32,000 bases of DNA from Trichodesmium erythraeum IMS101 (GCF_000014265.1 NC_008312.1:330001-362000), one strand, 5' to 3'. Counted from the first letter of the stretch, positions 2,920 through 21,063 are shown. Notes: a model not told the origin generated them from the sequence alone. Program-made: numbers and translations.

Positions 2920-5472
2920 TTAAATCTGACAATGACGTTGTAAACCTGCTGTTTCCTGATTATATGCTTCCATATCAATTTTCACAGGATCAACATTCCA
3001 TATTTCCTGACAATATTCTGAGATAGTACGGTCAGCAGAAAACTTACCCATATTAATCGAATTAATAATTGACATTCGAGTCCAATATTCTGGGTTACGA
3101 TAAGCCTTATTTACTTCTTCTTGACAATCAATATAAGATTGATAATCAGCCAACAACATATATTCATCTTTTTCTAGTAAAGATACTATCAGTGGCTGGA
3201 ATAAATCTGGTTTACCTGGTGAAAAATAACCAGAAGCAATACGGTCAATTACTTGTCGTAATTCTTTGTTATCATTATAGTATTTCTGAGGATTATATCC
3301 TTGATATTTTAATGCTTTAACTTCTTCAACAGTTAATCCAAATAAGAAGAAATTATCAGCTCCTACCGCTTCTCTAATTTCAATATTGGCTCCGTCAAGA
3401 GTACCAATAGTTAAAGCACCATTGAGGGAAAATTTCATATTCCCAGTACCAGAAGCTTCTTTTCCAGCAGTAGAAATTTGTTCAGAAAGATCGGCAGCAG
3501 GATAAATTTGCTGGCCAAGAGATACAGAAAAATTCGGAATAAAAACTATCTTGAGACGATGGCGCACGTCTGGGTCATTATTAACTATTTCCGCTACAGC
3601 ATTAATCAATTTAATAATTAACTTTGCCATAGAATAACCAGGGGCTGCCTTGGCTCCAAAAATAAAAGTGCGGTGCAAAATATCTGTATCTGGATTTTCT
3701 TTAATCCGATTATAAAGAGTAATAATGTGAAAGACATTCAACAGTTGACGTTTATATTCATGGAGTCTTTTTACTTGAATATCAAACAAAGAGTTAGGAT
3801 TAACTACAACCCCAATATTTTGTTTAATATAAGTAGCCAAATCTTGCTTATTCTCATACTTAATCTGACTCCAATTATAGCGAAATTCTTGATCATTAAC
3901 AAATTGCTTAAGTTGTTGAATTTCCTCCAAATTATTAATCCAATTTTTGCCGATTTTATTTGTAATTAGTAATGCCAGCTTGGGGTTACTAATTAATAAC
4001 CAACGACGGGGAGTAATGCCATTAGTTTTATTCGTAAATTTCTCCGGCCAAAGTTTATAGAAATCTTTCAAAACATCTGTTTTCAAAAGTTGAGTATGTA
4101 ATTTTGCTACACCATTGATAGCATGAGCCCCGGTGCAAGCCAAATGAGCCATCCGTACACTCTTTTCAGGCTGTTCTTCTATTAGTGACATCCGTGCTAA
4201 ACGTCGATCATCACCAGGGTAGCGTTTCTTCAACTCTTCTAGCAAATGGAAATTAATTTCATAAATAATTTCGATATGTCGTGGCAGCAAACTCTTGAAC
4301 ATACTAACTGGCCAACGCTCTAGGGCTTCTGCTAACAGAGTATGGTTAGTGTAGCCAAAAGTATTTTGGGTAATCTTCCAAGCTTTTTCCCATTCCATCT
4401 TATGTTCGTCTATCAGCAGTCGCATTAATTCCGCAACCCCAATGGAAGGGTGGGTATCATTCAGTTGAATGGCTACTTTTTTGTGGAAATTATCTAAATT
4501 GCGATTTCGCGATAAGTGAGTACGGATGATATCTTGAAGAGAACAACTAACAAAGAAATATTGCTGCTCTAACCGCAACATTTTGCCTTGGAAAATGTTG
4601 TCATTGGGATAGAGAACTTTAGAAATATTTTCAGAAACAGTCTTATCTTCGACGGCGCGGTTGTAGTCCCCAGAATCGAAAACTTGTAGGTCAAATTCAT
4701 TACTAGCTTTAGCACTCCACAACCGTAGGTTATTAACTGTGTTGGTGTTATAGCCTGGTACTAGAGTATCATAGGGCATTCCGATGACTGTGCGTTCAGG
4801 TATCCACCTAACACGGTAGTTGCCTTCTTTGTCTGTGTAAGTTTCGGTGTCGCCACCCAGTTTAATTTCTACTTTCTCCTCATAGCGGGGTATTTCCCAA
4901 GGGTTACCCAGACTTAACCATTTGTCTGGTTGTTCGACTTGGAAGCCGTTATGAACCAGTTGTTTGAAAATCCCAAATTCATAACGGATACCATAGCCTA
5001 CTGCAGGAATTTGTAGGGTAGCGAGGGAGTCTAGGAAACAGGCAGCGAGGCGGCCTAAGCCGCCGTTACCTAAACCTGGTTCTGGTTCTTTTTCAATCAA
5101 GTCATGCAGTTGAAGACATGATTCTTCTAGAGCTTGACGCGCTACTTCCCAACAACCAACGTTAACTAGGTTTTTGGCTAGTTGGCGACCCATGAGAAAT
5201 TCGGCTGAGAGATAATATACTGTTTTAACGTTTTGGTTGGAGTAGGTTTTAGTAGTTTGTAGGTGACGGTGGAGCAAGCGATCGCGTACTGTATATGCCA
5301 ATGCCATGTAATAATCATAAGGTGTGGCAAATTCTATGTTTTTTCCCTGTAAATAATATAAGTTATCTGCGATCGCTCGTTTAATAGTGTCAAGACTCGT
5401 ACCTGTGCGATCGTCTTCTATTTGAATTTTTACTTTTTCTGTGTAAGGTTTTTCTGGCTGTACTTCTTGCAT
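2920..5472 (-). CDS. glgP: glycogen/alpha-glucan phosphorylase
   Basis: 850-aa ORF. It has the PLP-lysine motif EASGTGNMKFSLNG and LGNGGLGRLAACFLDS, with the typical length and overall pattern. Confidence 0.95.
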   Translation of the reverse strand: MQEVQPEKPYTEKVKIQIEDDRTGTSLDTIKRAIADNLYYLQGKNIEFATPYDYYMALAYTVRDRLLHRHLQTTKTYSNQNVKTVYYLSAEFLMGRQLAKNLVNVGCWEVARQALEESCLQLHDLIEKEPEPGLGNGGLGRLAACFLDSLATLQIPAVGYGIRYEFGIFKQLVHNGFQVEQPDKWLSLGNPWEIPRYEEKVEIKLGGDTETYTDKEGNYRVRWIPERTVIGMPYDTLVPGYNTNTVNNLRLWSAKASNEFDLQVFDSGDYNRAVEDKTVSENISKVLYPNDNIFQGKMLRLEQQYFFVSCSLQDIIRTHLSRNRNLDNFHKKVAIQLNDTHPSIGVAELMRLLIDEHKMEWEKAWKITQNTFGYTNHTLLAEALERWPVSMFKSLLPRHIEIIYEINFHLLEELKKRYPGDDRRLARMSLIEEQPEKSVRMAHLACTGAHAINGVAKLHTQLLKTDVLKDFYKLWPEKFTNKTNGITPRRWLLISNPKLALLITNKIGKNWINNLEEIQQLKQFVNDQEFRYNWSQIKYENKQDLATYIKQNIGVVVNPNSLFDIQVKRLHEYKRQLLNVFHIITLYNRIKENPDTDILHRTFIFGAKAAPGYSMAKLIIKLINAVAEIVNNDPDVRHRLKIVFIPNFSVSLGQQIYPAADLSEQISTAGKEASGTGNMKFSLNGALTIGTLDGANIEIREAVGADNFFLFGLTVEEVKALKYQGYNPQKYYNDNKELRQVIDRIASGYFSPGKPDLFQPLIVSLLEKDEYMLLADYQSYIDCQEEVNKAYRNPEYWTRMSIINSINMGKFSADRTISEYCQEIWNVDPVKIDMEAYNQETAGLQRHCQI

Positions 5473-7201: not shown

Positions 7202-8224
7202 TTAAGCACCAATTTTAAATAAAGAACCCACAACTTGAGGAATATTTTCTAACTGCATTGCTGCCATTGCTGCTGTTGGTTCATAACCACAATGAACCAT
7301 ACAATCAGAACATTTAGGATTCCCACTTTTATAACCATAATTATTCCAATTAGTTTTCTCTATAAGTTCTTTAAAAGTAGCATAATACCCTTCATTCATT
7401 AAATAACAAGGTTTTTGCCAACCAAGCACACTATAGCTAGGACTACCCCAGGGAGTACAATCATAATCTTTTTCTCCCATCAAAAAGTCTAAAAATAGAG
7501 GATTATGGTTAAAATTCCAATTCTTTTTACCAGTTTTAAAAGGATTCAGAATTTCTTGAAATAACAATCGTGTTTGCTGTCGCTTCAGGAAATTATCCTG
7601 GTCTGGTGCCCACTCATAACTATAACCAGGAGAAATCATCATTCCATCAATATTTAAACTTTCTAAAAAATCAAAAAATTCCTGCATTTGTTTCGGGTCT
7701 GTTCCCTCAAATACAGTAGTATTAGTAGTAACTCGAAACCTTCTCGCTTTAGCAGCACGAATAGCTTCAACTGCTATTTGAAAAACCCCTTTTCTATCTA
7801 CACATTTATCGTGATTTGCCTGTAAACCATCAAGATGAACACTAAAAGTTAGATAAGGAGAAGGCTCAAATTTATCAAGATTCTTTTTGAGTAATAAACC
7901 ATTAGTACATAAATAAACAAATTTTTTCCGGTCAACTAACCCTTTGACAATTTCAGAAATTTGTGGATGTAATAAAGGCTCTCCTCCTGGAATAGAAACT
8001 ACAGGAGCACCACATTCTTCTACAGCAGTAAAACATTCTTGAGGTGTAAGATGTTGTTTTAATATTTCCTTGGGGTGCTGAATTTTGCCACAACCAGGGC
8101 AAGCTAAGTTACACCGAAACAAAGGTTCTAACATTAATACTAAAGGAAAATATTTGCGCCCTTTGAGTCGTTGAGTTAGAAGATATTTTCCGACTTCTAG
8201 AGCTTGTTGAAGTTGAATTGCCAT
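7202..8224 (-). CDS. hpnH: radical SAM protein, HpnH-like (adenosyl-hopene transferase, hopanoid side-chain biosynthesis)
   Basis: 340-aa ORF. It has the radical-SAM CxxxCxxC motif (CNLACPGCG), an N-terminal [20 protein letters not shown] and a C-terminal Cys cluster [11 protein letters not shown], all typical of HpnH. Confidence 0.75.
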
Positions 8225-8424: not shown

Positions 8425-9185
8425 AAAGTGTGGGAATGATCAGATGACTATTGTCCCTAAATACTTTCCATGATCATGGAATAGCATCTGTGTGGCCATC
8501 AGCAAACTATGGTATGAATTATTGTCCTGAATGGCTACAAACTTTCAATAATACTTTTGACACTCTATACTATCCCAGAAAAATTCCTAATGTAAGTAAT
8601 AGCTAAAAAAAAAGACATAAATTATAGAATTAAGTCTTTTTTTTGATCTCAAAACACTAGGGAATGGACAAAAATAGGACTTACCCAGGCAGATGAAATT
8701 CTACATCATTTGTATGGGTTAACGGAGTGCTCCGCAACATGAAAATTACTACTATATATGATTGGATAACTGCTCTATCAAACTGATACAAAGATTCACA
8801 TAACGTGATAATAGTTATGTTTACTTCCTGCTGACCCTGAGGCCTTAAGTTACTCAGCTACAGGGGTCGACGCTCAAGTTGAGGGCATTTCTCACCCTTT
8901 ATGCTTGGGTTTAATCTCGATCTATTGATAAGCTACATTCAGGGCCGTTATGAATTCTCAGCCTTAATGGCATATCTTCGACATGACTGCAGTTAGAGCA
9001 AGTTTTTTGATCACAGAAAGAATATATTAACTACGACAACTTACGGCACTATTGGCACTTGTACTCAAATTGTCTCCTGAATTGATAAAATCTTTGGTCT
9101 GCATCCACCTCTGTTGTTCCCTTCCGACTGAGGAGATGGGGCTGGGTTTTGGTTGGCTAAAATATTGCTGACATTCAAATATTCT
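8425..9185 (+). mobile_element. decayed IS-like element, copy 2 of 3 (same family as 1810-2690 and 21109-21455)
   Basis: It starts AAAAAGTGTGGGAATGATCAGATGACTATTGTCCC, encoding KCGNDQMTIVPKYFP* (compare KCGNDQMNIVPQPY in copy 1). By-eye homology runs through ACTACGACAACTTACGG / TGCATCCAC / AAAATATTGCTGACA near 9030-9185. There is no intact ORF. Confidence 0.4.
8605..8644. repeat. A9 / AGACATAA-N9-TTAAGTCT / T8 hairpin (bidirectional terminator-like); member of the AGACATAA hairpin family
   Basis: Read directly: AAAAAAAAAGACATAAATTATAGAATTAAGTCTTTTTTTT. The stem is 8 bp with one mismatch. Confidence 0.45.
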
Positions 9186-9350: not shown

Positions 9351-9380
9351 GAGACATAATTATGTCAGTTATGTCTTTTT
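9351..9380 (+). promoter_or_regulatory. GAGACATAA-N9-TTATGTCT hairpin plus T-run, about 100 nt upstream of the kinase gene
   Basis: The sequence is GAGACATAATTATGTCAGTTATGTCTTTTT, with an 8-bp perfect stem AGACATAA/TTATGTCT. It also contains the perfect palindrome GACATAATTATGTC. The same motif recurs beside both precursor genes. Confidence 0.4.
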
Positions 9381-9479: not shown

Positions 9480-10676
9480 ATGAAGTTTGTCTTAAACTCT
9501 CGAAATGTCTACGACTATTTAGTAGAAAATGGTTTATGTGATTCCCTACAGGAAGGGGAGCCATATCCTTCCCAGAACTCTCAGAGTAATGTTGAGCTAA
9601 TTAGTGCTAAGAATTTTAATTTATTGGTGACTTTGCCAGAGGGTCGAAAGCTTCTGGTTAAACAAGAACAATATAATTCTCAAGGAAAAACCCTTGGTGA
9701 GTTGTTTGGAGAATGGCGAATTCAAAAATTCTTACGGACATTTCCTGAACTTGACCATTGGCGTGTCTTTCTGCCAGAGTTGTTATTTCACGACCCTGAA
9801 AAGTCTATTGTGGTCTCTACTTACCTGGATAATTATCGAGATTTAAGTGATTTCTATTCTAAGGAAAATACTTTCCCTACAAAGGTTGCAGCTCAAATCG
9901 GTAATTTTTTGGGGACTGTTCACCGCGATACTTGGAATAGAGAAAATTATCGAGAGTTTTTTGCTAGTGAAGTTGTTAGTACTAAACCTGCAGTCTCCCC
10001 ACTTTTGGTGGATAGTCTCGAAAGGATAGGACCAGACATTTTTGGTATTGCTCCTGTAGATGGGTTGAGATTTTTTGCTCTTTATCAACGATATGACAGT
10101 TTGGGGAAAGCGATCGCTCAACTTCGCGAGACTTTATCTCCTACTTGTCTGACTCACAATGACCTGAAACTAAATAATATTCTCATGGCTCAAAATTGGG
10201 AAAATTCCGGTGAAAATATTGTGCGGTTAATTGATTGGGAAAGGTCTAGTTGGGGAGACCCTGCTTTTGATTTGGGAACGGCTATCAGCAGCTATCTGCA
10301 ACTTTGGTTGGGTAGTTTGGTTATTAGTAATTCTCTGAGTATAGAAGAATCTCTCAAATTTGCCACCACTCCCCTTGAATTACTTCAACCGTCTATTGCT
10401 GCTTTAGCTAAAGCTTATTTTGACACTTTCCCAGAAATTTTGGCATATCGTCCTGATTTTTTGAGACAAGTAGTACAGTTTGCAGGTTGGGGTTTGATGA
10501 CAGGAATTTTGTCAATGGTTCAATATCAAAAGACTTTTAATAATACGGGTATTGCGATGCTTCAGGTTGCCAAAGCATTATTATGTCGCCCTGACTCATC
10601 AATGTCTACAATTTTTGGTGTTGCTATTGAAGAAGTATTGAGGAGTCAGGAGCCAGGAGTCAGTAGAATGCATTAG
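9480..10676 (+). CDS. APH-fold phosphotransferase/kinase (candidate Ser/Thr-peptide kinase of a LxmK/TvaC-like dehydration pair)
   Basis: 398-aa ORF. It has the catalytic-loop motif HNDLKLNNIL (HxDxxxxN) and the metal-binding IDWERSSWGDPAFDLG, typical of the aminoglycoside/choline-kinase-like phosphotransferase fold. GAGAGG lies 9 nt upstream of the ATG. Confidence 0.75.
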   Translation: MKFVLNSRNVYDYLVENGLCDSLQEGEPYPSQNSQSNVELISAKNFNLLVTLPEGRKLLVKQEQYNSQGKTLGELFGEWRIQKFLRTFPELDHWRVFLPELLFHDPEKSIVVSTYLDNYRDLSDFYSKENTFPTKVAAQIGNFLGTVHRDTWNRENYREFFASEVVSTKPAVSPLLVDSLERIGPDIFGIAPVDGLRFFALYQRYDSLGKAIAQLRETLSPTCLTHNDLKLNNILMAQNWENSGENIVRLIDWERSSWGDPAFDLGTAISSYLQLWLGSLVISNSLSIEESLKFATTPLELLQPSIAALAKAYFDTFPEILAYRPDFLRQVVQFAGWGLMTGILSMVQYQKTFNNTGIAMLQVAKALLCRPDSSMSTIFGVAIEEVLRSQEPGVSRMH

Positions 10677-10838
10677 TACTACAACGCTTTTTAATGAACT
10701 ATTACAGGTAATATAGTGGTTGAGAATTGTCATAGGGAACGATAGTAAAGCTATCTCTGGGCAACTTTTCTTTTGCCACATTTAAGATTAAACAGTCCAC
10801 TACAATAATGCTTAAAAAATTTTACGAGGTTTAAAATT

Positions 10839-11948
10839 ATGCAATTACTTGAGTTTCCAAGTTATCACTTCCCTACTGGAGTAACTGGGCGATTAAAAGA
10901 AGTTTTATTAGACATTGTTGAGAGGGTAGAAATTTCCTCTGATTTTTCTATTCGTCATCCTGAGTATAAACCTTTAGATTTGCCTGCTGAGGTGGTTGCT
11001 CGTTTTCAGGCATTGCCAAAACAAATGCGGGATAAATATCTGAGTCTACAATTGCGTAGTTTTCTCTATGGTATCTATTATAATGGTTCGATGCAAACTT
11101 CCCTGGCATTGGATAGTGAGGAAAATAGTCGCCCATTAGATTTGGAGAATAATACTTTTCTTGGGGTAGAGATGGAGTTTTATATTCAGTTAGAAGAAAG
11201 TAATAGGGGAGAGGGGTATTTTGATTCTGGTTGGTCGGTGTTGAGGGAGGAAACTGATGGTGCTTTAGCTGTTACTAAGAATGGTTTGCGACTGCATATT
11301 GAACGAGAAAAGCATCTTCAAGAATCTCAGAAAGCTGCTGTTGTGGGGGATTCGGTAGCAATTCGGATGCCTAATAATTTGGTGCAAAATGGTTTCTATA
11401 TGGCGGTTGGTAATTTGGGTAGTCAGAGTCAGGTAGAGTCGGAAAGTCAATCTGGAGTGGTGCGAGTTTATTTTAACTTTACTTCTGAAGGTGCAGTAGT
11501 GGTCATGGGTAGTTTGACAGAGAAATTAAATGAGGTTGCTGTTCCTTTTAGTTTTAAAGTGTTGTATGCTCGTGATTATTATGATCGCTACGATGCTGGG
11601 GTACTCTATTTTGATAAGGATAATTATGAGTTGGTGAGGCAGGTTTTGTCGGATGTTTATGGGGAGAATAAATCTTATTTTAAATCAGAAATACCTTTAT
11701 TTACCATGGAGTTGGCACCGGGTTTGGGATTAGCTGAAGAGCCAGACAGGAAGTTTGCTAGTCAGGAAAGTTTTGGTATGAATAGGTGTCAGATGATAGC
11801 AAATGGATTATTGAAAGCTTGGGACCAGGGGGATAATTCGACTGAAGGAAGAATGAGGGCAATTTTGGAGCAATTTTCTTTATTGGGAATTGATTTGCAG
11901 CGTCCTTATTTGAATGCTAATTCTGAGGATGTTTATAGGGTGATATAG
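10839..11948 (+). CDS. HopA1-family-like protein (candidate phospho-Ser/Thr lyase partner of the kinase)
   Basis: 369-aa ORF directly downstream of the kinase on the same strand. Its size and sequence pattern (IRHPEYKPL, LRSFLYGIYYNG, LVQNGFYMA, GVLYFDK, GLGLAEEP..FGMNRC) match my recollection of cyanobacterial proteins annotated as the T3SS effector HopA1 family. This is not verifiable here. Confidence 0.5.
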   Translation: MQLLEFPSYHFPTGVTGRLKEVLLDIVERVEISSDFSIRHPEYKPLDLPAEVVARFQALPKQMRDKYLSLQLRSFLYGIYYNGSMQTSLALDSEENSRPLDLENNTFLGVEMEFYIQLEESNRGEGYFDSGWSVLREETDGALAVTKNGLRLHIEREKHLQESQKAAVVGDSVAIRMPNNLVQNGFYMAVGNLGSQSQVESESQSGVVRVYFNFTSEGAVVVMGSLTEKLNEVAVPFSFKVLYARDYYDRYDAGVLYFDKDNYELVRQVLSDVYGENKSYFKSEIPLFTMELAPGLGLAEEPDRKFASQESFGMNRCQMIANGLLKAWDQGDNSTEGRMRAILEQFSLLGIDLQRPYLNANSEDVYRVI

Positions 11949-11955
11949 TTTTTTT

Positions 11956-12347
11956 AGGTTGGGTTAAAGGACAGCGCCACCCAACAAGAACTCGTAAAGA
12001 TTAATTTTGAGATCAGGCTAATTATTTGTATGTGTTGGGCTTTGTTCCTCAACCCAACCTACACTATTTTCAATAATTTTTCAGTGGAACTGGGTTGGGT
12101 TAAGGGATAGGAAGTGAACAAAAGGTGGTATTTGTGAAGGTAGCGATCGCCTAAATTAACATGATTAATAGAACCGATGTTTATTAAAGAATAGTCTGGT
12201 GTAGGTGGGGTTAAGGGACAGCGAACCCAACAAAAAGCCTAACTAATGAAAATGGCGATCGCTAGGATCAGACAAAGATACTAAATGGTTCTACATTTTC
12301 TTCTAGTCTGGTGTAGGTTGGCTTAAGCGATCGCGCACACAACAACC
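11956..12347. repeat. cluster of 5 imperfect hairpin repeats (GGTTGGGTTAAGGGACAGCG.ACCCAACA type), one of them inverted
   Basis: Copies were read near 11957, 12041 (inverted), 12092, 12199 and 12311, at roughly 100-nt spacing. Each is internally self-complementary (GTTGGGT...ACCCAAC). This is a common Nostocales intergenic repeat class. Confidence 0.7.
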
Positions 12348-12412
12348 TATATCTGTGGTGTTTGGTTCTGGTGAGCAAACCCACGCCCCAGTTCAATAAT
12401 AATTTTTCAGTT

Positions 12413-12446
12413 CAGCTCCAGCTCAATTATGGGGCTGTTTTTTTTT
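12413..12446 (+). terminator. rho-independent terminator (likely ends the kinase/HopA1 transcript)
   Basis: CAGCTCCA-GCTCAATTA-TGGGGCTG forms an 8-bp stem with one G-U pair, followed by T9. Confidence 0.7.
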
Positions 12447-12486
12447 GACTTTTATTGTGGTTCGATACCATCAGAAAATAAAAAAA

Positions 12487-12511
12487 AGACATAATTGTGT
12501 GAGTTATGTCT
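12487..12511 (-). repeat. AGACATAA-N9-TTATGTCT hairpin, inverted relative to the 9351 copy (T-run on the minus strand)
   Basis: The reverse complement GAGACATAACTCACACAATTATGTCTTTTTTT aligns with 9351-9380. Both stem arms and the T-run are identical; only the loop differs. Confidence 0.45.
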
Positions 12512-12592
12512 CCAATAATTATCTTTTTTGATTTAATTAACTAGCTTTTAGCTAATTTTGAGTTAAAATGGATGATTATTAGTCGTTATTTC

Positions 12593-12620
12593 GAGACATA
12601 ATTGTGTCAATTAGATACAC
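12593..12620 (+). promoter_or_regulatory. half-decayed copy of the GAGACATAATT(A/G)TGTCA motif, about 47 nt upstream of a -35-like TTGCAT (12640-12645)
   Basis: GAGACATAATTGTGTCAATTAGATACAC shares its first 21 nt, apart from 2 mismatches, with 9351-9371. At 9351 the motif lies 46 nt upstream of a -35-like TTGTCA (9397-9402). Confidence 0.3.
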
Positions 12621-12750
12621 TTTGATTTTGTTCAACCCCTTGCATTTATAAGAAAGTTAGGTAATAATATAAGTGGAAAGAGACAAAACCAAGTCTGATT
12701 CCAAATCAACAAAGTTTATCTACTAATTTTACTTAAGGAGTAACTTAAAA

Positions 12751-12924
12751 ATGGCTAACATTAACATCTCTGATTTAAGTCCTGCTGGTGCGGACTTGTT
12801 CTTAGATTCTGAAAGCTACCTCAATGATTTGACTGAGGGAGAAATGACGAATACATTGGGTGGTAAAGGTAGCTTCACCTTTTGTGGTAAACGGATCTCA
12901 TGGAGTATCTGCTGGGGGTACTGA
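12751..12924 (+). CDS. double-glycine-leader peptide precursor A (57 aa; core KGSFTFCGKRISWSICWGY)
   Basis: Hand translation gives MANINISDLSPAGADLFLDSESYLNDLTEGEMTNTLGG|KGSFTFCGKRISWSICWGY*. AAGGAG lies 10 nt upstream. The leader fits the C39 consensus L(-12)xxxE(-8)M(-7)xxTxGG. The leader is conserved with only synonymous changes in the paralog at 13694. The ORF is below the track's size cutoff. Confidence 0.85.
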   Translation: MANINISDLSPAGADLFLDSESYLNDLTEGEMTNTLGGKGSFTFCGKRISWSICWGY

Positions 12925-13356
12925 TCATAAAATTAAGTAAAAAAAAAAGAAGAGAGTGATTTGGTGATTATTCCATCTTAGTATAAGTGAGAACTATGTC
13001 AACAATTCTTTCCTACCTTTTCTGACAGTTGATTTACTGTGACTAATTGACTAACTAATCTTGCTAGTTCCTCACTTTTGGTTACCTGGCACCATAGGCA
13101 CAGCTAAAAAACTGACCATCACTAATAAAAGGAAAATACCTCTTAAAAGTTTGCTACTTTAGTAATACTTTCTTGAGGTATTTTCTGTGCCTTATGTTGA
13201 CGACAAGACAAAAAAGCTGGAGGATTAGAATTTGTAGGTTGCAGGTTATCATTGTAGAGGTGTAGGTTAGGCGATCGCGCACACAACAACCTATATCTGT
13301 GGTGTTTGGTTCTGGTGAGCAAACCCACGCCCCAGTTCAATAATAATTTTTCAGTT

Positions 13357-13390
13357 CAGCTCCAGCTCAATTATGGGGCTGTTTTTTTTT
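13357..13390 (+). terminator. rho-independent terminator (duplicate of 12413-12446)
   Basis: The identical CAGCTCCA-GCTCAATTA-TGGGGCTG stem-loop is followed by T9. Confidence 0.7.
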
Positions 13391-13693
13391 GACTTTTATT
13401 GTGGTTCGATACCATCAGAAAATCAAAAAAGACATAATTGTGTGAGTTATGTCTCCAATAATTATCTTTTTTGATTTAATTAACTAGCTTTTAGCTAATT
13501 TCGAGTTAAAATGGATGATTATCAGTCGTTATTTTGAGACATAATTGTGTCAATTAGATACACTTTGATTTTGTTCAACCCCTTGCATTTATAAGAAAGT
13601 TAGGCAATAATATAAGTGGAAAGAGACAAAACCAAGTCTGATTCCAAATCAACAAAGTTTATCTACTAATTTTACTTAAGGAGTAACTTAAAA

Positions 13694-13852
13694 ATGGCTA
13701 ACATTAACATCTCTGATTTAAGTCCTGCTGGTGCTGACTTGTTCTTAGATTCTGAAAGCTATCTCAACGATTTGACTGAGGGAGAAATGACGAATACATT
13801 AGGAGGATCGAGGTGGTGGAACAGATTAAAAGATTGGTTTCGTACACGTTAA
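13694..13852 (+). CDS. double-glycine-leader peptide precursor B (52 aa; core SRWWNRLKDWFRTR)
   Basis: Hand translation gives MANINISDLSPAGADLFLDSESYLNDLTEGEMTNTLGG|SRWWNRLKDWFRTR*. It has the same AAGGAG SD as gene A. Six nucleotide differences from the gene A leader were counted, all synonymous third-position changes. Confidence 0.85.
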   Translation: MANINISDLSPAGADLFLDSESYLNDLTEGEMTNTLGGSRWWNRLKDWFRTR

Positions 13853-14300
13853 GCAGCACTAAGTACTTTTACGTGAGTCCTGATTAAATCTTAGTATAGG
13901 TTCAGAACTGTGTCAACAATTCTTTCCTACCTTTTCGACAGTTTCTTTGCTGTGACTAATTGACTAACTAATCTTGCTAGTTCCTCATTTTTGGTTACCA
14001 GGCACCATAGGCACAGCTAAAAAACTGACCATCACTAATAAAAGGAAAATACCTCTTAAAAGCTTGCTAGTTTAGTAATACTTTTTTGAGGCATTTTCTG
14101 TGCTTTATGTTGACTACAAGACTGCGTGACTCAACCCAAGCTACCCCATAAAAAGATATGACCCAGTGGAAAATGTGATGCTCAACTGGGTGATATTTGG
14201 CATTGACATCGGTTGGACTGAGGAGTAGAAAGCAGTAGTGTTGAGGGCGACAAGATCAGATGATGACGCCACCCCAAACCCTATAACTACTCCAATGAGA

Positions 14301-15062
14301 CTATGCAGCAATAAGTTTACTATTTAAATCTAAATCAATTAAAACTTCAACCGACTCAACTTGCTTCTTAAGCCACTCATCAAACAACTCCGCAAAAATC
14401 TGAGAGCGCAACTTATTATCTAACTCTGCTGAAATAATTTCCTCCACAAAAATCAAATGTACCCCCTTAGAAGTCACAATAGGTTTAATCATCTGGGGAG
14501 GTTTAGCCGCAAAAACAGCCGCAGAAATCTCTGGTTTCAAATCCTTACGATACAACACCCCTCGATATCCCCCCTGACGACGTAACTCTATATCTTCAAT
14601 GTATTCATGAGCCACATCATAGAAACTTGTTTCCCCTTCCTGAATAGCATAGAATAATTCCATCCCTAAATCTTGATCATCCAAAACCACCTCATACATC
14701 ACCACACCAGCATAATTCAATTGATTTTCATAAAAATATGGCTCAACTTTATCTGCAAACAGATGAGCCACCAATTTTTGAGCAACAACACTTATATAGA
14801 CAACTTCCTCAAAATCATCAATAGATAGACAAAACTTTTCTAACCAAGCAAAAGTGTCTTGGGCGCTATGAAGTTTATTTACAAACCTCATAGTATCTGC
14901 CGCTTTCTGCAGTTCTTCAGTCTCCACTTTTATACCCGCTTCCTTCGCTGCATTCAGAATAATCTCGCGAGTAATAATCTCTTCTTTCAGCTCAGAAGTT
15001 TTTAAAGATAACTTAATGTGCTTCAAAATATCTTCAGCAGTAATAATAATAGATTGTAACAT
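14301..15062 (-). CDS. parvulin/PpiC-type peptidyl-prolyl isomerase-like protein with no signal peptide
   Basis: 253-aa ORF. The C-terminal part (GGYRGVLYRKDLKPEISAAVFAAKPPQMIKPIVTSKGVHLIFVEE) resembles the PpiC rotamase core (GG.LG.f.rg.m.p.f..a.f....G....pv.t..G.H.i.v). The N-terminal part is helical and SurA-N-like. It is the last gene of the exporter operon. Confidence 0.65.
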   Translation of the reverse strand: MLQSIIITAEDILKHIKLSLKTSELKEEIITREIILNAAKEAGIKVETEELQKAADTMRFVNKLHSAQDTFAWLEKFCLSIDDFEEVVYISVVAQKLVAHLFADKVEPYFYENQLNYAGVVMYEVVLDDQDLGMELFYAIQEGETSFYDVAHEYIEDIELRRQGGYRGVLYRKDLKPEISAAVFAAKPPQMIKPIVTSKGVHLIFVEEIISAELDNKLRSQIFAELFDEWLKKQVESVEVLIDLDLNSKLIAA

Positions 15063-15346: not shown

Positions 15347-17230
15347 CTACAACTCTAAACCTCCTTTTTGTAACTTCTTAAACGGGTCAAGAATAAAATC
15401 AATCAAAGGACGCTGACGCACAACAACCTCAGCCGTTGCCGTATCCCCCGGACGCAAAACAACACACTCATTAGCAGTAGGAATACAATACTCATCCAAC
15501 TCAACCTTTAACTCATAAATAGCCACATTTCCCTCAGCAGTTTCCTGCATTTTTGAAGTAGGAGAAATCTCTTTCAACCATCCCCCAACTACACCATAAT
15601 CCTGAAAAGGATAGGCATCAAACTTCATTTTTACCTCCATTCCTTCCCTTAACGAACCACTTTCTGTAGTTGCCATATCCGCCTTTAATAAAAGACTCGT
15701 TTCCCTAGGAGCTATCTCCACTATCATCTCTCCTTGTTGCACAACATCTCCCACACCTTTGATGGGGAAATTAAAAATAGTACCTCCCTGTTGCGCCCTA
15801 ACTACTCGTTGCTCTAACTGAAAATTTAAAGAATCAATCTCTTTATTTGTCTGAGCAATTTCTCCTTGAATACTAACAATTTGACTATCCATACTCTGAA
15901 GTTGCTCTTGTATTTTTGATATAGCAATTTTCCCAGAATGAGTAATAGTTTTAGAGCTATTTTCTTGCTCATTCAAACGTAATTCAGCCTGCTTAATATC
16001 TGCCTTAACTTGATTAATTACCATTTCATAACTACTCTTTTGTTCTGCCAAACGTAACTCAGCTTGCTCAATATCTGCCTCCCCTTGATTAATAATTCTT
16101 TCATAACTACCTTTTTGCTCTGCCAAACGTAATTCAGCTTGCTTAATATCTGCCTTTCCTTGATGAATAACCCTCTTATAACTACCCTCTTGCTCTTCTA
16201 TTCGTAATTTAGCTTGCTCAATATCTGCTTGACTTTGCTCCAACATTCTTTGTCTTTCTCGCCCAATATTTTCATGCTCAACTAATTGTATTTCCGTCAC
16301 CACACCCTGGTCCCAAAGACCACGATAACGTTCTACTTCTTTCATAGCCTTTTCCCAGCGAATTTCTGATAATTGATAAGCAATTTGACTATCTTTTAAT
16401 TGTCGTTTTGCTTGATTGAATTGAGCCATTTTTTCTTCTTTCTGTAAACTCAACGCTCTCTTAAGAGCTCCCAAATTTTCTTCTGCTTGATAAACTTGTA
16501 CTAATTTTTCTTCCCTTTGTAAATTTAATGTTCTTCTGAGAGCCGCCAAATTTTGTTCTGCTTGATGAACTTGGGTCAGTTTTTCTTGTTCCTGTAAATT
16601 GTACATTGTTTTAAGAGATTGTGCGTTTTGTCGTGCTTGCCCCACTTGAGCTAATTTTTCTAATTTTTGAGATTCATTTTGTCGTTCTTGGGTACGAAGT
16701 TCAATTTCCAATTGATTTTTTTGTTGTTGAATCTTACTAAGTCGATTTTTCTGATTTTGCAGTTGAATTTGGAGTTGAGCAAGTCGGTCATGAATAGGGC
16801 GAGATTCTAATTCTATTAAAATATCTCCAGCCTTAATTTTATCCCCTTGTTTAACATAAACTTTCTCAACTTTTGCCGTTTGTGTATATGCGGTAAACGT
16901 TAAATTTAGCTCTTGTTTAAAAGTACCACCTTGAGGTTCTAAACGTCCTCTAGCTGAACCAGTTTCATCTACTTGAGAAAACATTCCCCAAGGGAGAGCG
17001 ATCGCTACAAATCCTATTAAAAGATATAGTAATCCTCGTGTCCAACGTTGTGGTAAAGCATCTAATAATTCTTTAGTAGCAAAAGACCAATCATCAACAG
17101 ATTCATCTAACTTTGTAACTGCTGTTTCTTGATAGTTAGAATTCTTCAAACTTTTTTCTAATGTTACTAAGTCAACCTCTAAAGGTTTATGACCATTTGA
17201 CTCTAAAGTTAAGTTCAATTCTTGTGGCAT
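15347..17230 (-). CDS. HlyD-family periplasmic adaptor (membrane fusion protein) with an expanded coiled coil
   Basis: 627-aa ORF with an N-terminal TM segment (GLLYLLIGFVAIALPWGMF). A lipoyl-like segment VYVKQGDKIKAGDILIELES pairs with the C-terminal GGTIFNFPIKGVGDVVQQGEMIVEIAP. The central coiled coil is long and Q/E/K-rich. Confidence 0.9.
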   Translation of the reverse strand: MPQELNLTLESNGHKPLEVDLVTLEKSLKNSNYQETAVTKLDESVDDWSFATKELLDALPQRWTRGLLYLLIGFVAIALPWGMFSQVDETGSARGRLEPQGGTFKQELNLTFTAYTQTAKVEKVYVKQGDKIKAGDILIELESRPIHDRLAQLQIQLQNQKNRLSKIQQQKNQLEIELRTQERQNESQKLEKLAQVGQARQNAQSLKTMYNLQEQEKLTQVHQAEQNLAALRRTLNLQREEKLVQVYQAEENLGALKRALSLQKEEKMAQFNQAKRQLKDSQIAYQLSEIRWEKAMKEVERYRGLWDQGVVTEIQLVEHENIGRERQRMLEQSQADIEQAKLRIEEQEGSYKRVIHQGKADIKQAELRLAEQKGSYERIINQGEADIEQAELRLAEQKSSYEMVINQVKADIKQAELRLNEQENSSKTITHSGKIAISKIQEQLQSMDSQIVSIQGEIAQTNKEIDSLNFQLEQRVVRAQQGGTIFNFPIKGVGDVVQQGEMIVEIAPRETSLLLKADMATTESGSLREGMEVKMKFDAYPFQDYGVVGGWLKEISPTSKMQETAEGNVAIYELKVELDEYCIPTANECVVLRPGDTATAEVVVRQRPLIDFILDPFKKLQKGGLEL

Positions 17231-17560: not shown

Positions 17561-20287
17561 CTACCCAACATCTAACTGTTGACGATTCAAATAATAATAA
17601 TGTCCCCGTTTCGCCATCAACTCTTCATGATTTCCCTGCTCAATTAATACCCCCCGATCCAACACTAAAATTAGATCAGCATTTCTCACAGTAGATAAAC
17701 GGTGAGCAATAATTAACGAAGTGCGACCCTGGAGAATAGTATTCAAATTCCTCTGAATAATTCGCTCCGACTCAACATCCAGATGAGAAGTAGCCTCATC
17801 AAAAACCAAAAAACAGGGTTTTCCTAACAAAGCACGAGCGATCGCTAATCTTTGCCGTTGACCACCAGACAACAAACCCCCACCTTCCCCTATCTGAGTT
17901 TCATAACCCATCGGCAACCGTTGAATAAACTCATCAGCACCAGCTAACCTAGCAGCATCCACAATATCTTCAAGAGTTGCAGAAGGACAAGCCATAGTCA
18001 AATTTTCCCGAATAGTGCCACCAAATAAAAAAGTATCCTGATCAACCACACCCACTTTATTCCGCAGGGATGGCAACGAAATCGCCGTGATATCGTAACC
18101 ATCAATCAAAATTTTCCCATCAGTAGGCGGATACAACCCCAAAACCAACTTAGAAATTGTTGTCTTCCCAGACCCAGAGCGCCCCACCAAAGCCACAGTT
18201 TGTCCAGCTTTCACCTCAAAACTCAGATTTTCCAAAACATTAATATCGCTTTCTGGGTGGTAACGGAAAGTCACATTATCAAAAATAATATTACCCCGTA
18301 GCTCCGTCAAATACTGACGTGCCTGAGATTGTAAATCTTCCTCAGGCTCAGTATCAATCACATCATTAATACGCTCCATGGCAATAACCACCTCCTGTAA
18401 CTGATTCCACAAAACCGTCAGTCGCTGAAAAGGGCTAATCACATTACCTATCAACATATTAAAAGCCACCAACTGCCCAATAGTTAACTCTCCCTGAATA
18501 ACCAACCAAGCTCCAAACCATAGTAACCCCGTCGTTACTAAAGATTCAATAGTTAAGCTAAACATTTGCAGTCGGTTACCCATCACCTGTCCAGAAAAGT
18601 TTTTTCTGATTGACTTATTCAGAAGTTCCTCCCACCGCCAGCGTACTGTTTGCTCAACTGCCAGAGATTTCACAGTATTTACACCAGTCAAAGATTGAAT
18701 CAGATAACTACTTTCTTCAGCTAGAGCGGCAAATATTTCTCTAGAGATTTTTTGGAGAAAGGGTGTAGCAATAAGTGCTAATAAAAAAAACGGTGGCACA
18801 ATAACCAATGCTAGCAAAGCCATCTTCCAGCTATACCAGAACATTAGCCCTACATAAACAAATACCGTCAGCAAATCTAAGACAATAGAAAGAGCTTCTC
18901 CAGTTAAGAAATTCTCAATTTTCCGGTTTTCTTGAACCCGAGCAATAATATCCCCCACATAACGAGACTCAAAAAAACTCATGGGTAGTCGGAATGTGTG
19001 GCGAATAAACCCAACGATCATGGCTATATGTACTCTATTAGCCGTGTGATCAAGGAGATATTGTCGCAAACCCGTCATAGCCACCTGAAATAAGCCAAAG
19101 AGCACTAAACCTAATCCCACTGCTGTTAGAGTTAGAGTGCTACCTTGAACAACTACCCGGTCTAGTAGTAGTTGGGTAAATAGAGGGGTAATAAGTCCAA
19201 ATATTTGAATTACTAGAGAAGTGATAAATACTTCCAATAGAACTTGTCCATGAGGACTGACCAACTCAAAAAATTGCCAGAAAGGAGTAGTGGTATCTTT
19301 AAGTTTTTTGATTAATGCAGTAGGTTGTAGGAGTAAAGTATAGCCAGTCCAACCAGCTTTAAATTCTGGATAAGTAAGATGGCGTTGACCAATAGCGGGG
19401 TCAGCGATGATCACCTGTTTATGGGTGACCTCATAGACTACCACATAATGTTTACCTTCCCAGTGAGCGATCGCTGGTAATTTTTGTTTAGCTAATTGAT
19501 CAAGACTTGCCTTAACTGGTCTGGTAGAATATCCAATGCTTTCTGCAGCAGCAGATAATCCTCGAAGTGAAGCACCGTTACGGTCTACATTAGCAATATC
19601 GCGCACCCTATTCACGCTGAAATTTTTGCCCCAGTAACGAGCAACCATGACTAAACAAGCCGCACCACAGTCAGAACCGCTTTGTTGGGCAAAGAATGGA
19701 TAGCGTCTGGTAATACGCTGCCAGAGATGACCTACTCTTTGGGTGGGACTAGGGAAATAGGCTTTGTTAATAGCTTTTTGTCCTATAACCTCTGGTTGCT
19801 CATATTCAGTCCTGTTAAATTCTGGCAGATTTTTACCCAAAGAATTGGGAATTTCTGGCTCCGCTTTTTTCTGTAGAGCATTAAGTTTGAGAGCAACTTG
19901 GTAAAGATGTTCTCGAATTTGAGGATGTTTTTTAATTAGTGGGAGTAGAGCTTCTCGAGAGAGATAGGAAAGTTTGAGATTTACTGATGCTCTAGCAGAG
20001 TAGGATAAAAAAGAGTTATCTGGAAATAGGGTAGATTCCCCAAATGAAGCTCCAGCAACAAGGGTAGTCATTAATTCACCCTCAGTATCTAAGAGTCTAA
20101 CTTTGCCTTTGGTGATTATATATATGCCGGTTTGAGCATCTGCTGTTTGCCAAAATTGACCGACTTTGGGCGTTAAATTTTCCATATTTTTCAAGCAACT
20201 TTCTATTTCCTGCTGTGAAAGTTGATATCCTAAGACATCACTAAGCTGCTCTTGAGTTAAACTTGGAGTGGATGCAGTTTTAACCAT
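17561..20287 (-). CDS. cyclic-nucleotide-binding domain / C39 peptidase / ABC transporter (bacteriocin-type, HetC-like exporter)
   Basis: 908-aa ORF.
- cNMP-binding signatures: FGESTLF and SARASV.
- C39 catalytic Cys context QQSGSDCGAACLVMV, and His in AIAHWEGKHYVVVYEV.
- TMD.
- Walker A GRSGSGKTT, signature LSGGQRQRLAIARAL, Walker B LVFDEATSHLD. Confidence 0.92.
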   Translation of the reverse strand: MVKTASTPSLTQEQLSDVLGYQLSQQEIESCLKNMENLTPKVGQFWQTADAQTGIYIITKGKVRLLDTEGELMTTLVAGASFGESTLFPDNSFLSYSARASVNLKLSYLSREALLPLIKKHPQIREHLYQVALKLNALQKKAEPEIPNSLGKNLPEFNRTEYEQPEVIGQKAINKAYFPSPTQRVGHLWQRITRRYPFFAQQSGSDCGAACLVMVARYWGKNFSVNRVRDIANVDRNGASLRGLSAAAESIGYSTRPVKASLDQLAKQKLPAIAHWEGKHYVVVYEVTHKQVIIADPAIGQRHLTYPEFKAGWTGYTLLLQPTALIKKLKDTTTPFWQFFELVSPHGQVLLEVFITSLVIQIFGLITPLFTQLLLDRVVVQGSTLTLTAVGLGLVLFGLFQVAMTGLRQYLLDHTANRVHIAMIVGFIRHTFRLPMSFFESRYVGDIIARVQENRKIENFLTGEALSIVLDLLTVFVYVGLMFWYSWKMALLALVIVPPFFLLALIATPFLQKISREIFAALAEESSYLIQSLTGVNTVKSLAVEQTVRWRWEELLNKSIRKNFSGQVMGNRLQMFSLTIESLVTTGLLWFGAWLVIQGELTIGQLVAFNMLIGNVISPFQRLTVLWNQLQEVVIAMERINDVIDTEPEEDLQSQARQYLTELRGNIIFDNVTFRYHPESDINVLENLSFEVKAGQTVALVGRSGSGKTTISKLVLGLYPPTDGKILIDGYDITAISLPSLRNKVGVVDQDTFLFGGTIRENLTMACPSATLEDIVDAARLAGADEFIQRLPMGYETQIGEGGGLLSGGQRQRLAIARALLGKPCFLVFDEATSHLDVESERIIQRNLNTILQGRTSLIIAHRLSTVRNADLILVLDRGVLIEQGNHEELMAKRGHYYYLNRQQLDVG

Positions 20288-20400: not shown

Positions 20401-21063
20401 TTAAATAACTAAAGTGTTGAAAGTTAACGTTTCCAAATCAGAGTTAACATTTTGCTCTGAGGTCAGGTCGCGAATTGCAATGTTTTTTCTCTTGGCATTT
20501 TGACTAATAGTTTCATCAGTTTGAGCTGATAATGTTTTAGTAGATAATCCCATCTTTTTGATTAAACGGTTAATATGGCGATCGCTAAATTCTACCCCAA
20601 ATTCTTTAGCTAAATGTTTCCCTAAGCAATTAGCAGTCCACCGCTCAAATGCATAACCACATTTCTTAGGACTATTAGTTAATAACTCTTTCAACCGCTC
20701 TAAATATTGTTCATTAACTTCTTGAGGACGACCTATAGGGTGATTCTTCCATTGTTGAGCTTGACCAGACTGAGCAATAAATATCCAGTATCTAGCTGTA
20801 GCTAGAGAACAACCTATAGCCTCACGGATCTGGGTCTGGGTTTTGCCTTCATCTGCTAGAAGCATGATTTCTATTCTCTGGCGATATTGCCTGGTCAACT
20901 TCTTATCTAGACTTTTTTCTAACAATTTACGCTGAAAAGACGTCAAGCAGCTGCCGTGTAAACTTGACTCATTCATTGTGATTTTGGATTTTGAGTGATT
21001 GTATAACATAGGTTTATAATTATTTTTTGACACTCCAGTTTTTCTCACAGAGATATTTCTCAA
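20401..21063 (-). CDS. stand-alone HTH protein resembling the N-terminal DNA-binding half of IS630-type transposases (possible locus regulator); start codon uncertain
   Basis: 220-aa ORF. It reads LLADEGKTQTQIREAIGCSLATARYWI ... GRPQEVNEQYLERLKELL ... YAFERWTANCLGKHLAKEFGVEFSDRHINRLIKKMGLS, a homeodomain-like plus winged-helix pattern. No DDE half follows; the ABC gene starts 113 nt downstream. An alternative start MNESS lies at about 20976. Confidence 0.6.
   Translation of the reverse strand: MRNISVRKTGVSKNNYKPMLYNHSKSKITMNESSLHGSCLTSFQRKLLEKSLDKKLTRQYRQRIEIMLLADEGKTQTQIREAIGCSLATARYWIFIAQSGQAQQWKNHPIGRPQEVNEQYLERLKELLTNSPKKCGYAFERWTANCLGKHLAKEFGVEFSDRHINRLIKKMGLSTKTLSAQTDETISQNAKRKNIAIRDLTSEQNVNSDLETLTFNTLVI

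Follow-up and report, generated by a model that had tools for sequence, protein, structure and literature searches.

We analysed a 32,000-nucleotide (nt) stretch of the genome of Trichodesmium erythraeum IMS101 (GCF_000014265.1, NC_008312.1:330001-362000), referred to below as the window, in which a tandem pair of short peptide-precursor genes lies inside a biosynthetic gene cluster. The cluster reads, in order, LanK-like kinase, HopA1-family putative lyase, precursor array, PpiC-like protein, HlyD-type protein, ATP-binding cassette exporter with a C39 peptidase domain (C39-ABC) and helix-turn-helix (HTH) protein. The same arrangement recurs across Okeania, other Trichodesmium lineages, Nostoc and a metagenome-assembled genome (MAG) of an unclassified cyanobacterium. 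A first-pass annotation of the window had singled out the array as a tandem cassette with a swapped core, and the present analysis follows up that observation.

A repeat search and a MAFFT alignment of the two units placed the copies of a direct repeat 943-944 nt apart. Unit 1 (12323-13209), delimited additionally by block-wise BLAST, and unit 2 (13267-14122) both lie on the plus strand and are separated by a 57-nt junction (13210-13266, plus strand; alignment and BLAST). The upstream arm of 428 nt is 98-99% identical between the units, with 127/128 identical positions in 12323-12450, 205/210 in 12451-12660 and 89/90 in the 5′ untranslated region (5′UTR; 12661-12750). The 114-nt leader-coding segment is 95% identical as a whole, being invariant over its first 37 nt (37/37) and matching at 71 of 77 positions over nt 38-114; all six differences are synonymous, and the two 38-residue leader peptides are identical. 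The 3′ flanks are 93% identical overall, with values of 90% in 12968-13074, 96% in 13075-13163 and 91% in 13164-13209. Enclosed by these arms on the plus strand are variable module 1 (12865-12967; 103 nt, comprising the core codons and 43 nt of unique trailer) and variable module 2 (13808-13880; 73 nt, comprising the core codons and 28 nt of unique trailer), as delimited by alignment. Local DNA alignment of the variable segments gave a score of 14, compared with 13.7 ± 2.2 in 2000 shuffles (fraction reaching the score, 0.50), and the protein alignment scored 12, compared with 16.3 ± 3.5 in shuffles (fraction 0.96). Since these scores are at shuffle level, the cores have no residual homology of the kind that simple divergence might have left.

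The alignment, the repeat search and the shuffle test therefore agree with the first-pass description of near-identical flanks around unrelated core segments, and also with its argument that point mutation cannot yield such a pattern, the arms being 1-7% diverged and the core at chance similarity. Its coordinates were broadly right, but the upstream arm, put at about 440 nt, measures 428 nt, and the starts of the 3′ flanks move from 12975 and 13888 to 12968 and 13881. What is repeated is not a cassette with flanks but an entire transcription unit that extends between successive terminators. The two-unit arrangement is reproduced in L010, an independent metagenome scaffold, so that an assembly artefact is excluded for the arrangement in IMS101. 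The junction is 100% identical in L010 and in four other comparison loci (L020, L021, L023 and L024), and would represent the join point of the duplication.

Each unit encodes one precursor on the plus strand. Precursor 1 (12751-12924, 57 amino acids) consists of the leader MANINISDLSPAGADLFLDSESYLNDLTEGEMTNTLGG (12751-12864; MANINISDL...TNTLGG) followed by the core KGSFTFCGKRISWSICWGY (12865-12921), which contains two S-x-x-x-C motifs. Precursor 2 (13694-13852, 52 amino acids) joins the same leader to the core SRWWNRLKDWFRTR (13808-13849), which is cationic and free of Cys, and is an exact match to WP_196797185.1 from T. erythraeum. The leader of 38 amino acids ends in Gly-Gly and shows, by inspection, L-15, L-12, E-8, M-7 and G-2/G-1. 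At E ≤ 0.1, NCBIfam offers no match to either precursor, the bacteriocin-type, Nif11 and NHLP leader models included. A search with precursor 1 retrieved 174 homologues; among the 120 listed, the leaders are near-identical, and all 120 have E-x(3-8)-G[GAS] at the same place. The cores attached to these leaders are very different from one another. The 120 listed of the 174 homologues, from Trichodesmium and Okeania, carry at least 118 distinct cores of 10-58 amino acids, falling into about 55 families. Two or more [ST]xxxC motifs are found in 44 of the 120 cores (shuffled mean 2.8, maximum 8), 42 of the 120, core 2 among them, contain no Cys, and internal duplications are present in many. This pattern of one leader and many cores fits a promiscuous modification and export system addressed via the leader.

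Wherever two cassettes have unrelated cores, they stop resembling each other at the Gly-Gly codons or shortly before them (leader nt 114-120); in pairs that include L016 this happens at leader nt 95. Between Trichodesmium-type and Okeania-type cassettes, the leader has a proportion of synonymous differences (pS) of 0.245 and a proportion of nonsynonymous differences (pN) of 0.044 (pN/pS about 0.18), while the neighbouring genes of the two genera have a pS of about 0.19-0.40. We considered a homogenisation of the leader at the nucleotide level across genera and rejected it, as the leader pS equals that of the flanking genes; the conservation of the leader is therefore ordinary purifying selection on the peptide. 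Two proteins from metagenomic cassettes, P0022 and P0077, have a core without a stop codon, and the called protein runs into the 3′ flank (...QYRFRTVSTILSYLF...), so the flank follows further cores, and the coding length between Gly-Gly and the flank is fluid. The plasmid collection gave no match. The leader string and core 2 are absent from the supplements of Wang et al. 2011, which list Tery_ precursors, and the searchable literature holds no description of this leader family of Trichodesmium and Okeania or of its cassette architecture, the nearest being a remark on 'type-B' precursors in PMC9486802.

We then compared the site between the HopA1 and PpiC genes among relatives. Scans with the leader gave 9 loci on genome contigs and 8 on metagenome contigs. 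Five Trichodesmium lineages, the window included, share the flanking genes, with the HopA1 protein 97-99% identical and a pS of 0.01-0.06 where computed. The content of the HopA1-PpiC interval differs completely among these five lineages, and the arms are 92-100% identical. The window carries KGSFTFC... and SRWWN... at this site, L023 carries WTWIGIRITIW... and GWSFFIRTII... in arms that are 95-100% identical, and L036 (MAG_R01) carries GWSLISFNNCC... and GYWTSYYTYW.... The MAG_R02 type (L026 and L003) has AFSV[LF]VCFNEG... together with Nif11-type precursors and radical-SAM enzymes, and in L003 only an RTX-repeat protein; some of these genes stand behind the same promoter module as the precursors. 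In L025 (T. thiebautii H9-4) and L030-32, a toxin-antitoxin pair is inserted after an orphan operator module, and L025, which extends further than L030-32, has one cassette, GSFGICFPKWSIGICW, after the pair. The comparison of close relatives that had been proposed with the first-pass annotation thus shows cores that differ in L023, L026, L025 and L036 and flanks that stay fixed. Ordinary substitution in the same two cores, which that annotation had named as the outcome speaking against it, describes a subset of loci, namely L019, where core 1 has three amino-acid differences, and L020-22, which hold an indel-bearing relative of core 2; the other four lineages do not fit it.

Further rearrangements are visible in the same comparison. 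Upstream arms group by slot across strains (96.6-97.5% identity for slot 1 and 97-99% for slot 2) while the cores that they carry are unrelated. A core found in the terminal slot of one contig may occupy an internal slot of a different one (in the comparisons of L023 with L024 and of the window with L021), the join point between units differs in L036, and solo operator modules or truncated cassettes are left in L004, L025 and L028. In Okeania L028 (6946-7891) and L029 (720-1665), three terminator-operator modules stand in tandem with a precursor behind the last only, and in L004 (4298-4495) a cassette leader has an internal 8-residue deletion and no operator; both look like debris of cassette loss. 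The DUF433/DUF5615 toxin-antitoxin pair, which sits behind its orphan operator module at what would be slot 1, recurs in three independent assemblies. L025 (LAMW01000018) also has its kinase, HlyD and ABC exporter genes each split into 2-3 open reading frames (ORFs; 3514-4711, 9689-11571 and 11903-14628), which could reflect either cluster decay or sequencing errors.

Block-wise BLAST against all comparison loci, combined with multiple alignments, resolved the anatomy of a unit. It consists, in order, of a palindrome resembling repetitive extragenic palindromes (REP-like), a terminator hairpin, two operator boxes, the promoter and 5′UTR, the Gly-Gly leader, the variable core and a 3′UTR or linker. 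As each unit is a whole transcription unit, the upstream arm starts with the terminator of whatever precedes it. The REP-like motif GTAGGTTGGGTTAAG, often with the loop GCGATCGC, was located by motif scan and repeat search as a cluster at 11954-12327 between the HopA1 gene and unit 1, and the last copy of this cluster, at 12313, marks the start of unit 1. The motif has 6 matches in the window, all within 11954-14144, compared with 0.96 expected. Copies occur at unit boundaries in both orientations and some form hairpins; partial copies lie inside the junction between the units, and an inverted copy at 14130-14144, after the second 3′ flank, ends the array. The motif is also found at unit starts in other genera. 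An intrinsic-terminator hairpin followed by T9 was predicted by the terminator scan at the 5′ end of each unit (12419-12447, plus strand; unit 2 copy 13363-13391). In 19 copies from several genera, 96.7% of the cells are paired and the changes are wobble-compatible only, with no double compensatory change among them; the hairpin would stop transcription arriving from upstream.

Downstream of the hairpin, motif scans and repeat analysis identified Box A, a perfect palindrome GACATAA-N9-TTATGTC (12488-12510, plus strand; unit 2 copy 13431-13453), which is kept in all aligned cassettes, and unit 1 also has a degenerate second box, Box B (12595-12617, plus strand). Exactly three perfect copies of the palindrome occur in the 32 kb (at 9353, 12488 and 13431; 0.26 expected), and they precede the kinase gene (9353-9375, plus strand, by motif scan) and each precursor gene. 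The same palindrome lies upstream of the kinase gene in L002, L003, L005, L025, L026 and L036. A copy with one mismatch, GACATAAATTATAGAATTAAGTC, is located at 8614-8636, between a radical-SAM/DUF3463 gene (7202-8224, minus strand) and the kinase gene. The promoter and 5′UTR block (12641-12750, plus strand), recognised by its conservation, contains the ribosome-binding site AAGGAG. It is 99% identical between the units and 85-91% identical to its counterparts in Okeania and the related loci L002-L016. A promoter scan found no consensus promoter at 12641-12750, and the candidate promoter that we place there, TTGCAT-17-AATAAT, is under the scan threshold. The region that ends the array (14123-14300) is 74-100% conserved 3′ of the last cassette in other loci and contains a hairpin (14156-14196), read from the sequence, that may terminate the convergent PpiC-HlyD-ABC operon. 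The terminator-operator-promoter module of the precursors also stands 5′ of a 396-residue RTX-type Gly/Asp-repeat protein (L003 4063-5716) and of a Nif11-leader precursor with a radical-SAM enzyme after it (L003 6125-7019; L026 8858-9621), so the regulatory module is portable and defines a wider regulon.

BLAST and alignments divide the 3′ flank of unit 1 (12968-13209, plus strand) into F3A (12968-13074), F3B (13075-13163) and F3C (13164-13209); the second copy, 13881-14122 on the plus strand, was aligned to it. F3A is found in both units of the window, in slot 1 of L023, in L019, L021 and L016, after 2 of 4 cassettes of L001 and partially in L028/29, and it is absent after most cassettes. F3B is an insertion seen only in Trichodesmium and is absent from Okeania, and the 3′ part of F3B together with F3C stands ahead of the junction, or of the end of the array, for all Trichodesmium cassettes with downstream sequence. 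A 54-nt centre of F3A (AGAACTATGTCAACAATTCTTTCCTACCTTTTCTGACAGTT.ATTT.CTGTGAC; 12990-13043, 13904-13956 and L028 8251-8304) is 94% identical between Trichodesmium and Okeania, above the level of synonymous sites in neighbouring genes, where 20-35% of them differ. Neither strand of this centre contains an ORF, and it lacks a convincing fold or a known motif. A 33-residue ORF at 13061-13162 and 13974-14075, in which 3 of the 4 differences between copies are synonymous, was rejected as a gene: it has a TTG start, lies mostly within the segment absent from Okeania and is also truncated in L003 and in slot 2 of L023.

Three functions had been proposed for this flank in the first-pass annotation, namely a terminator, a small RNA (sRNA) or a recombination arm. 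The inverted repeat that it described is real at 13133-13142 and 13175-13184, and extends to 11 bp (13132-13142/13175-13185). A terminator is contradicted by the lack of a T run after the repeat, by the position of one arm in the Trichodesmium-only insertion and by a mismatch in copy 2; the absence of F3B in Okeania removes that arm along with most of the 33-residue ORF. An sRNA is poorly supported, the RNA-structure signal being weak and an Rfam scan of 11900-14350 at E ≤ 1 giving only chance matches to eukaryotic families. As a recombination arm the flank is not universal, in that F3A follows only some cassettes and the limit of the swapped segment lies elsewhere in other strains. The flank is a 3′UTR or linker, not a terminator, a gene or a supported sRNA.

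A different reading would make the 3′ flank a functional RNA or regulatory element unrelated to recombination, such as a 3′UTR stabiliser, a cis-antisense promoter from which an RNA would extend over core and leader, or an sRNA derived from the 3′UTR. We give this only a tentative place, as a possibility that is rather unlikely. On the minus strand, a promoter-like TTGACA-16/17-TAAGAT (10/12 matches) runs from 13002 to 12975 and from 13916 to 13888, facing the core, and its TTGACA hexamer is invariant in 8/8 aligned copies; the −10 hexamer, however, is not conserved in Okeania (TGGGAT in L001), the part conserved in L028 excludes it, and the promoter scan returned 4 sites, fewer than the shuffled mean of 7.2. 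Folding of the flank gave z = −2.1 on the plus strand, which together with the highly conserved 54-nt centre favours an RNA function, and z = −1.1 on the minus strand. Against this, the consensus fold of F3A is weak (−6.6 kcal/mol), its covariation term is without support and only one pair shows a compensatory change. The lack of an Rfam match, the loss of the 33-residue ORF through the Okeania deletion and its truncation elsewhere, and the absence of the element after most cassettes also weigh against such a function.

Altogether, we consider it probable that the region is a two-member tandem array of double-glycine-leader precursors of a ribosomally made, post-translationally modified peptide (RiPP) or bacteriocin, whose cores are swapped by general homologous recombination between the arms. 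A single leader would serve the large, old core repertoire of the Trichodesmium and Okeania populations, with ordinary purifying selection maintaining leader and regulatory DNA. Whole core modules would be replaced, duplicated and deleted through exchanges between the arms, by gene conversion, double crossover or unequal crossing-over, and the REP-like repeats at the unit ends are probably the join points of duplications. At the level of the product, the leader would direct the peptide to the LanK-like kinase and the HopA1-type lyase, which may dehydrate Ser/Thr; thioether rings would form next in the cores with S-x-x-x-C motifs, and the C39-ABC/HlyD exporter would cut after Gly-Gly. A four-gamete test on the arms found that 451 of 861 informative site pairs fail, with a minimum number of recombination events (Rm) of at least 13 over 563 nt. 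The earlier proposal that cores are replaced by recombination between conserved arms is supported, with the revision that the 3′ flank is not a universal arm. A 'built-in diversification mechanism' is not supported. The window yielded neither a recombinase nor an integron-type site, and no reverse transcriptase or other machinery dedicated to diversification; exchange within a multi-copy, population-wide cassette family by general recombination would suffice without a dedicated diversifying enzyme.

Several points weigh against this interpretation. Apart from the window, all comparison loci are metagenome or MAG assemblies, in which an assembler could mis-thread a 0.9-kb repeat with more than 141 identical bases; this affects the observation of different cores in the same slot, while the mosaic in the finished IMS101 genome and each leader-core junction, which lies within a short contig, are independent of such mis-threading. 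A permutation test modelled on the pairwise homoplasy index (PHI) revealed no distance-dependence of the incompatibility in the arms (1888/2000 permutations at or below the observed value), and the homoplasy is therefore not formally separable from recurrent mutation. The conservation of the F3A centre exceeds what a purely passive linker explains. As to the chemistry, the kinase is far under the curated LxmK cut-off, neither a cyclase nor a homologue of LanX turned up in the window and core 2 is without Cys, so that lanthionine formation is only putative. Finally, general recombination shuffles cores and leaves the origin of about 55 unrelated core families unexplained; internal duplications and indels within cores hint at slippage, by analogy with what has been proposed for prochlorosins.

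The mosaic could also have arisen in place, by a tandem duplication after which the cores diverged beyond recognition through strong diversifying selection and frequent small indels and no core was ever replaced, the arms being kept alike by purifying selection and/or by gene conversion halting at the edge of homology. We think this unlikely. It would account for a similarity edge at the Gly-Gly boundary in all pairs with unrelated cores, as selection alone would do likewise, and the difference between the upstream 465 nt (about 99%) and both the last 77 nt of the leader (92%) and the 3′ flank (93%) suggests a separate recent conversion tract. Relatives of core 2 do differ by indels (SRWWNRLKDWFRTR versus SRWWTTWRRLFR), many cores are internally duplicated, and for prochlorosin cores indel-driven divergence is the published view (preprint 10.1101/2020.03.09.984088). 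However, the segment that cannot be aligned continues beyond the stop codons, taking in 28-43 nt of non-coding DNA, and in L026 up to about 380 nt. Unrelated cores lie within 92-100% identical arms in lineages with the low flanking-gene pS given above, and core families persist across genera at ordinary substitution rates, as seen for [VI]LPLVYIGIG[LV]Y[MV]GYTIWG, which shows that the cores are not hypermutating. In addition, the leader pS among Trichodesmium cassettes is 0.20, at least four times that of the flanking genes; the cassette lineages are therefore old, and imported rather than diverged in place.

Least probable of all is a dedicated cassette exchange in which the REP-like palindromes and/or the F3A centre are sites of a specialised recombinase, for example a single-strand transposase of the REP-associated tyrosine transposase type (RAYT, or TnpA_REP) encoded elsewhere: it draws on the confinement to the array of all 6 REP-like motifs of the window, bracketing units as the motif does at unit starts elsewhere, on the 94% identity of an F3A centre without ORF or convincing fold, and on a proposed association of TnpA_REP with prochlorosins, with related TnpA_REP genes named in Trichodesmium, a claim later weakened by its authors (10.1101/2020.03.09.984088), but no integrase, catalytic-domain transposase, RAYT or reverse transcriptase is present in the window or beside the arrays of the comparison loci, most cassettes are not followed by F3A, the swapped segments end downstream at points that vary among loci, unlike those of a fixed site, and no matching pair of sites surrounds the core, whose 5′ limit is simply the end of the leader. 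It is very doubtful that selection keeps the REP-like palindromes and the F3A centre as targets of a recombination system encoded elsewhere in the genome. If it were true, the array would serve as a 'core-peptide cassette' platform of an integron-like kind, offering the first mechanistic answer to how hypervariable RiPP libraries arise in marine cyanobacteria.

The genes on either side of the array are consistent with a RiPP cluster. Upstream, a kinase of the aminoglycoside phosphotransferase (APH) fold resembling LanK/LxmK (9480-10676, plus strand) was identified by PF01636 (E = 1.6e-11, above the Pfam cut-off) and by synteny. It aligns over nearly the full length of NF038156 LxmK with E = 1.4e-28, but reaches 100 bits compared with a curated cut-off of 315, and is predicted from its sequence to be the Ser/Thr kinase of a split dehydratase. 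The HopA1-family protein, which is LanY-like (10839-11948, plus strand; PF17914, E = 7.8e-61, 205 bits versus a cut-off of 22.7), is identical to ABG49710.1 of T. erythraeum IMS101 and is predicted by analogy to be the phospho-Ser/Thr lyase, the role of the family being taken from PMC9486802. No LanX-type second APH-fold gene and no LanC-like gene was found among the window ORFs of at least 90 amino acids, the PpiC-like protein being the one further protein that is conserved.

Three genes downstream of the array read on the minus strand towards it. The first encodes a PpiC-type rotamase-like protein (14301-15062; PF00639), syntenic in all loci, which weakly matches the 'peptide maturation system' family TIGR04500 (E = 3e-20, under the cut-off). 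It is followed by an HlyD-type membrane fusion protein (15347-17230; HlyD_3, profile searches) and by an ABC exporter with cyclic nucleotide-binding, peptidase C39 (PF03412, E = 1.5e-40), ABC membrane (PF00664) and ATPase (PF00005) domains (17561-20287), an arrangement that is syntenic in all related loci. From its domains, the exporter is predicted to cleave the leader after Gly-Gly. Tandem repeats of 75 nt occur at two places within the HlyD-type gene, three at each (15938-16237 and 16406-16630, minus strand), encoding 25-residue coiled-coil units such as ...AELRLAEQK.SYE..INQ...ADI.Q.... As the alignment of the protein with its Okeania relatives spans 682 columns, compared with 627 residues in the window, the number of repeats appears to be variable.

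At the end of the exporter operon, a 220-residue HTH protein (20401-21063, minus strand; HTH_32/33) corresponds to the N-terminal part only of an IS630 transposase (NF033545 positions 1-120 of 299), with no catalytic domain matched. It occupies the same position from Trichodesmium to Nostoc, Okeania included, with 52-69% identity, and the position is kept in L001, L002, L005-L008, L025 and L028. It looks like a domesticated transposase DNA-binding domain, and is a candidate regulator that might bind the GACATAA-N9-TTATGTC boxes. Two AAA_35-domain proteins adjoin the cluster (22378-23694 and 24244-26607, both on the plus strand) and are also adjacent in L010 and L025; one has a weak N-terminal LuxR-type HTH, and an extracellular sensor domain of the CHASE2 family is present in the other. 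Since core 2 is cationic and free of Cys, it is conceivable that they sense a peptide signal.

The system resembles the prochlorosins (ProcA/ProcM) of Prochlorococcus and Synechococcus, with which it shares a conserved Gly-Gly leader, a very large and hypervariable set of cores in a marine cyanobacterial population, several precursor genes per genome and a presumably promiscuous modification. Unlike the prochlorosin leader, the one described here is not of the Nif11/NHLP type; a separate kinase and HopA1-family lyase are present and no LanM was found in the cluster; each precursor has its own operator and promoter unit at a fixed site between enzyme and exporter genes; and the replacement of whole cores at one slot is directly visible. 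It thus works like the prochlorosins but is not a member of the ProcA/ProcM family, whose core diversification is an open question (preprint 10.1101/2020.03.09.984088; PMC10783134). The pairing of an APH-fold kinase with a HopA1-family lyase beside short Ser/Thr/Cys-rich precursors recalls the class V lanthipeptides lexapeptide, cacaoidin and pristinin. Dehydration by LanK and LanY has been shown for cacaoidin, and a group of 'type-B' precursors has been noted that are all cyanobacterial and uncharacterised and combine a shared leader with diverse cores (PMC9486802). Unlike the LanK/LanY/LanX systems, the locus has no LanX, decarboxylase or reductase, its kinase scores below the LxmK threshold (100 versus 315 bits), the leader is of the double-glycine type with C39-ABC export, a third of the cores have no Cys and the system is known from its genes alone. 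Membership in class V would therefore be incomplete, with LanY present, LanK below the curated cut-off and LanX not found.

Further parallels concern the arrangement of the variable segments. The cyanobactin 'natural combinatorial libraries' of the patE type (Donia et al. 2006, cited in PMC13500794) are likewise pathways near-identical in DNA except for short hypervariable product cassettes bounded by conserved sequence; those cassettes are parts of a single precursor gene and are set between recognition sequences for proteases, whereas in Trichodesmium a separate gene with a promoter and terminator of its own encodes each core. Clustered extragenic palindromes, with 6 copies confined to the array, resemble REP/RAYT systems, but neither the 32-kb window nor the flanks of the comparison loci contain a RAYT gene. 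For integrons, diversity-generating retroelements (DGRs) and shufflons, no site-specific recombinase or reverse transcriptase with cognate sites was found in the window or the comparison loci, and unlike DGR targets the cores vary in length, with differences that involve all four bases. In the pneumococcal blp class II bacteriocin locus, several double-glycine-leader genes stand behind a conserved regulated promoter together with a C39-ABC exporter. The bacteriocin content of blp-type loci varies by strain through recombination between the conserved leader and promoter sequences, and cationic unmodified peptides may act as signals. The Trichodesmium locus differs from blp in having modification enzymes but no recognisable two-component system or immunity genes beside the cassettes, in its cyanobacterial host and in its candidate regulator, a transposase-derived HTH protein.

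With its single fixed site, its long conserved non-coding arms and its unrelated cores in near-identical backgrounds, the locus is a cleaner test bed for RiPP core turnover, although it adds no new principle, and its recombination breakpoints could be mapped directly with long reads. The leader and arms would provide a natural design rule for experimental core swapping, and the cores with two S-x-x-x-C motifs are candidate ring-forming peptides. Trichodesmium, a globally important nitrogen-fixing bloom former, carries together with Okeania more than 100 secreted-peptide cores behind one leader, a library attached to what appears to be an uncharacterised cyanobacterial split kinase/lyase dehydratase of the 'type-B', class V-like kind.

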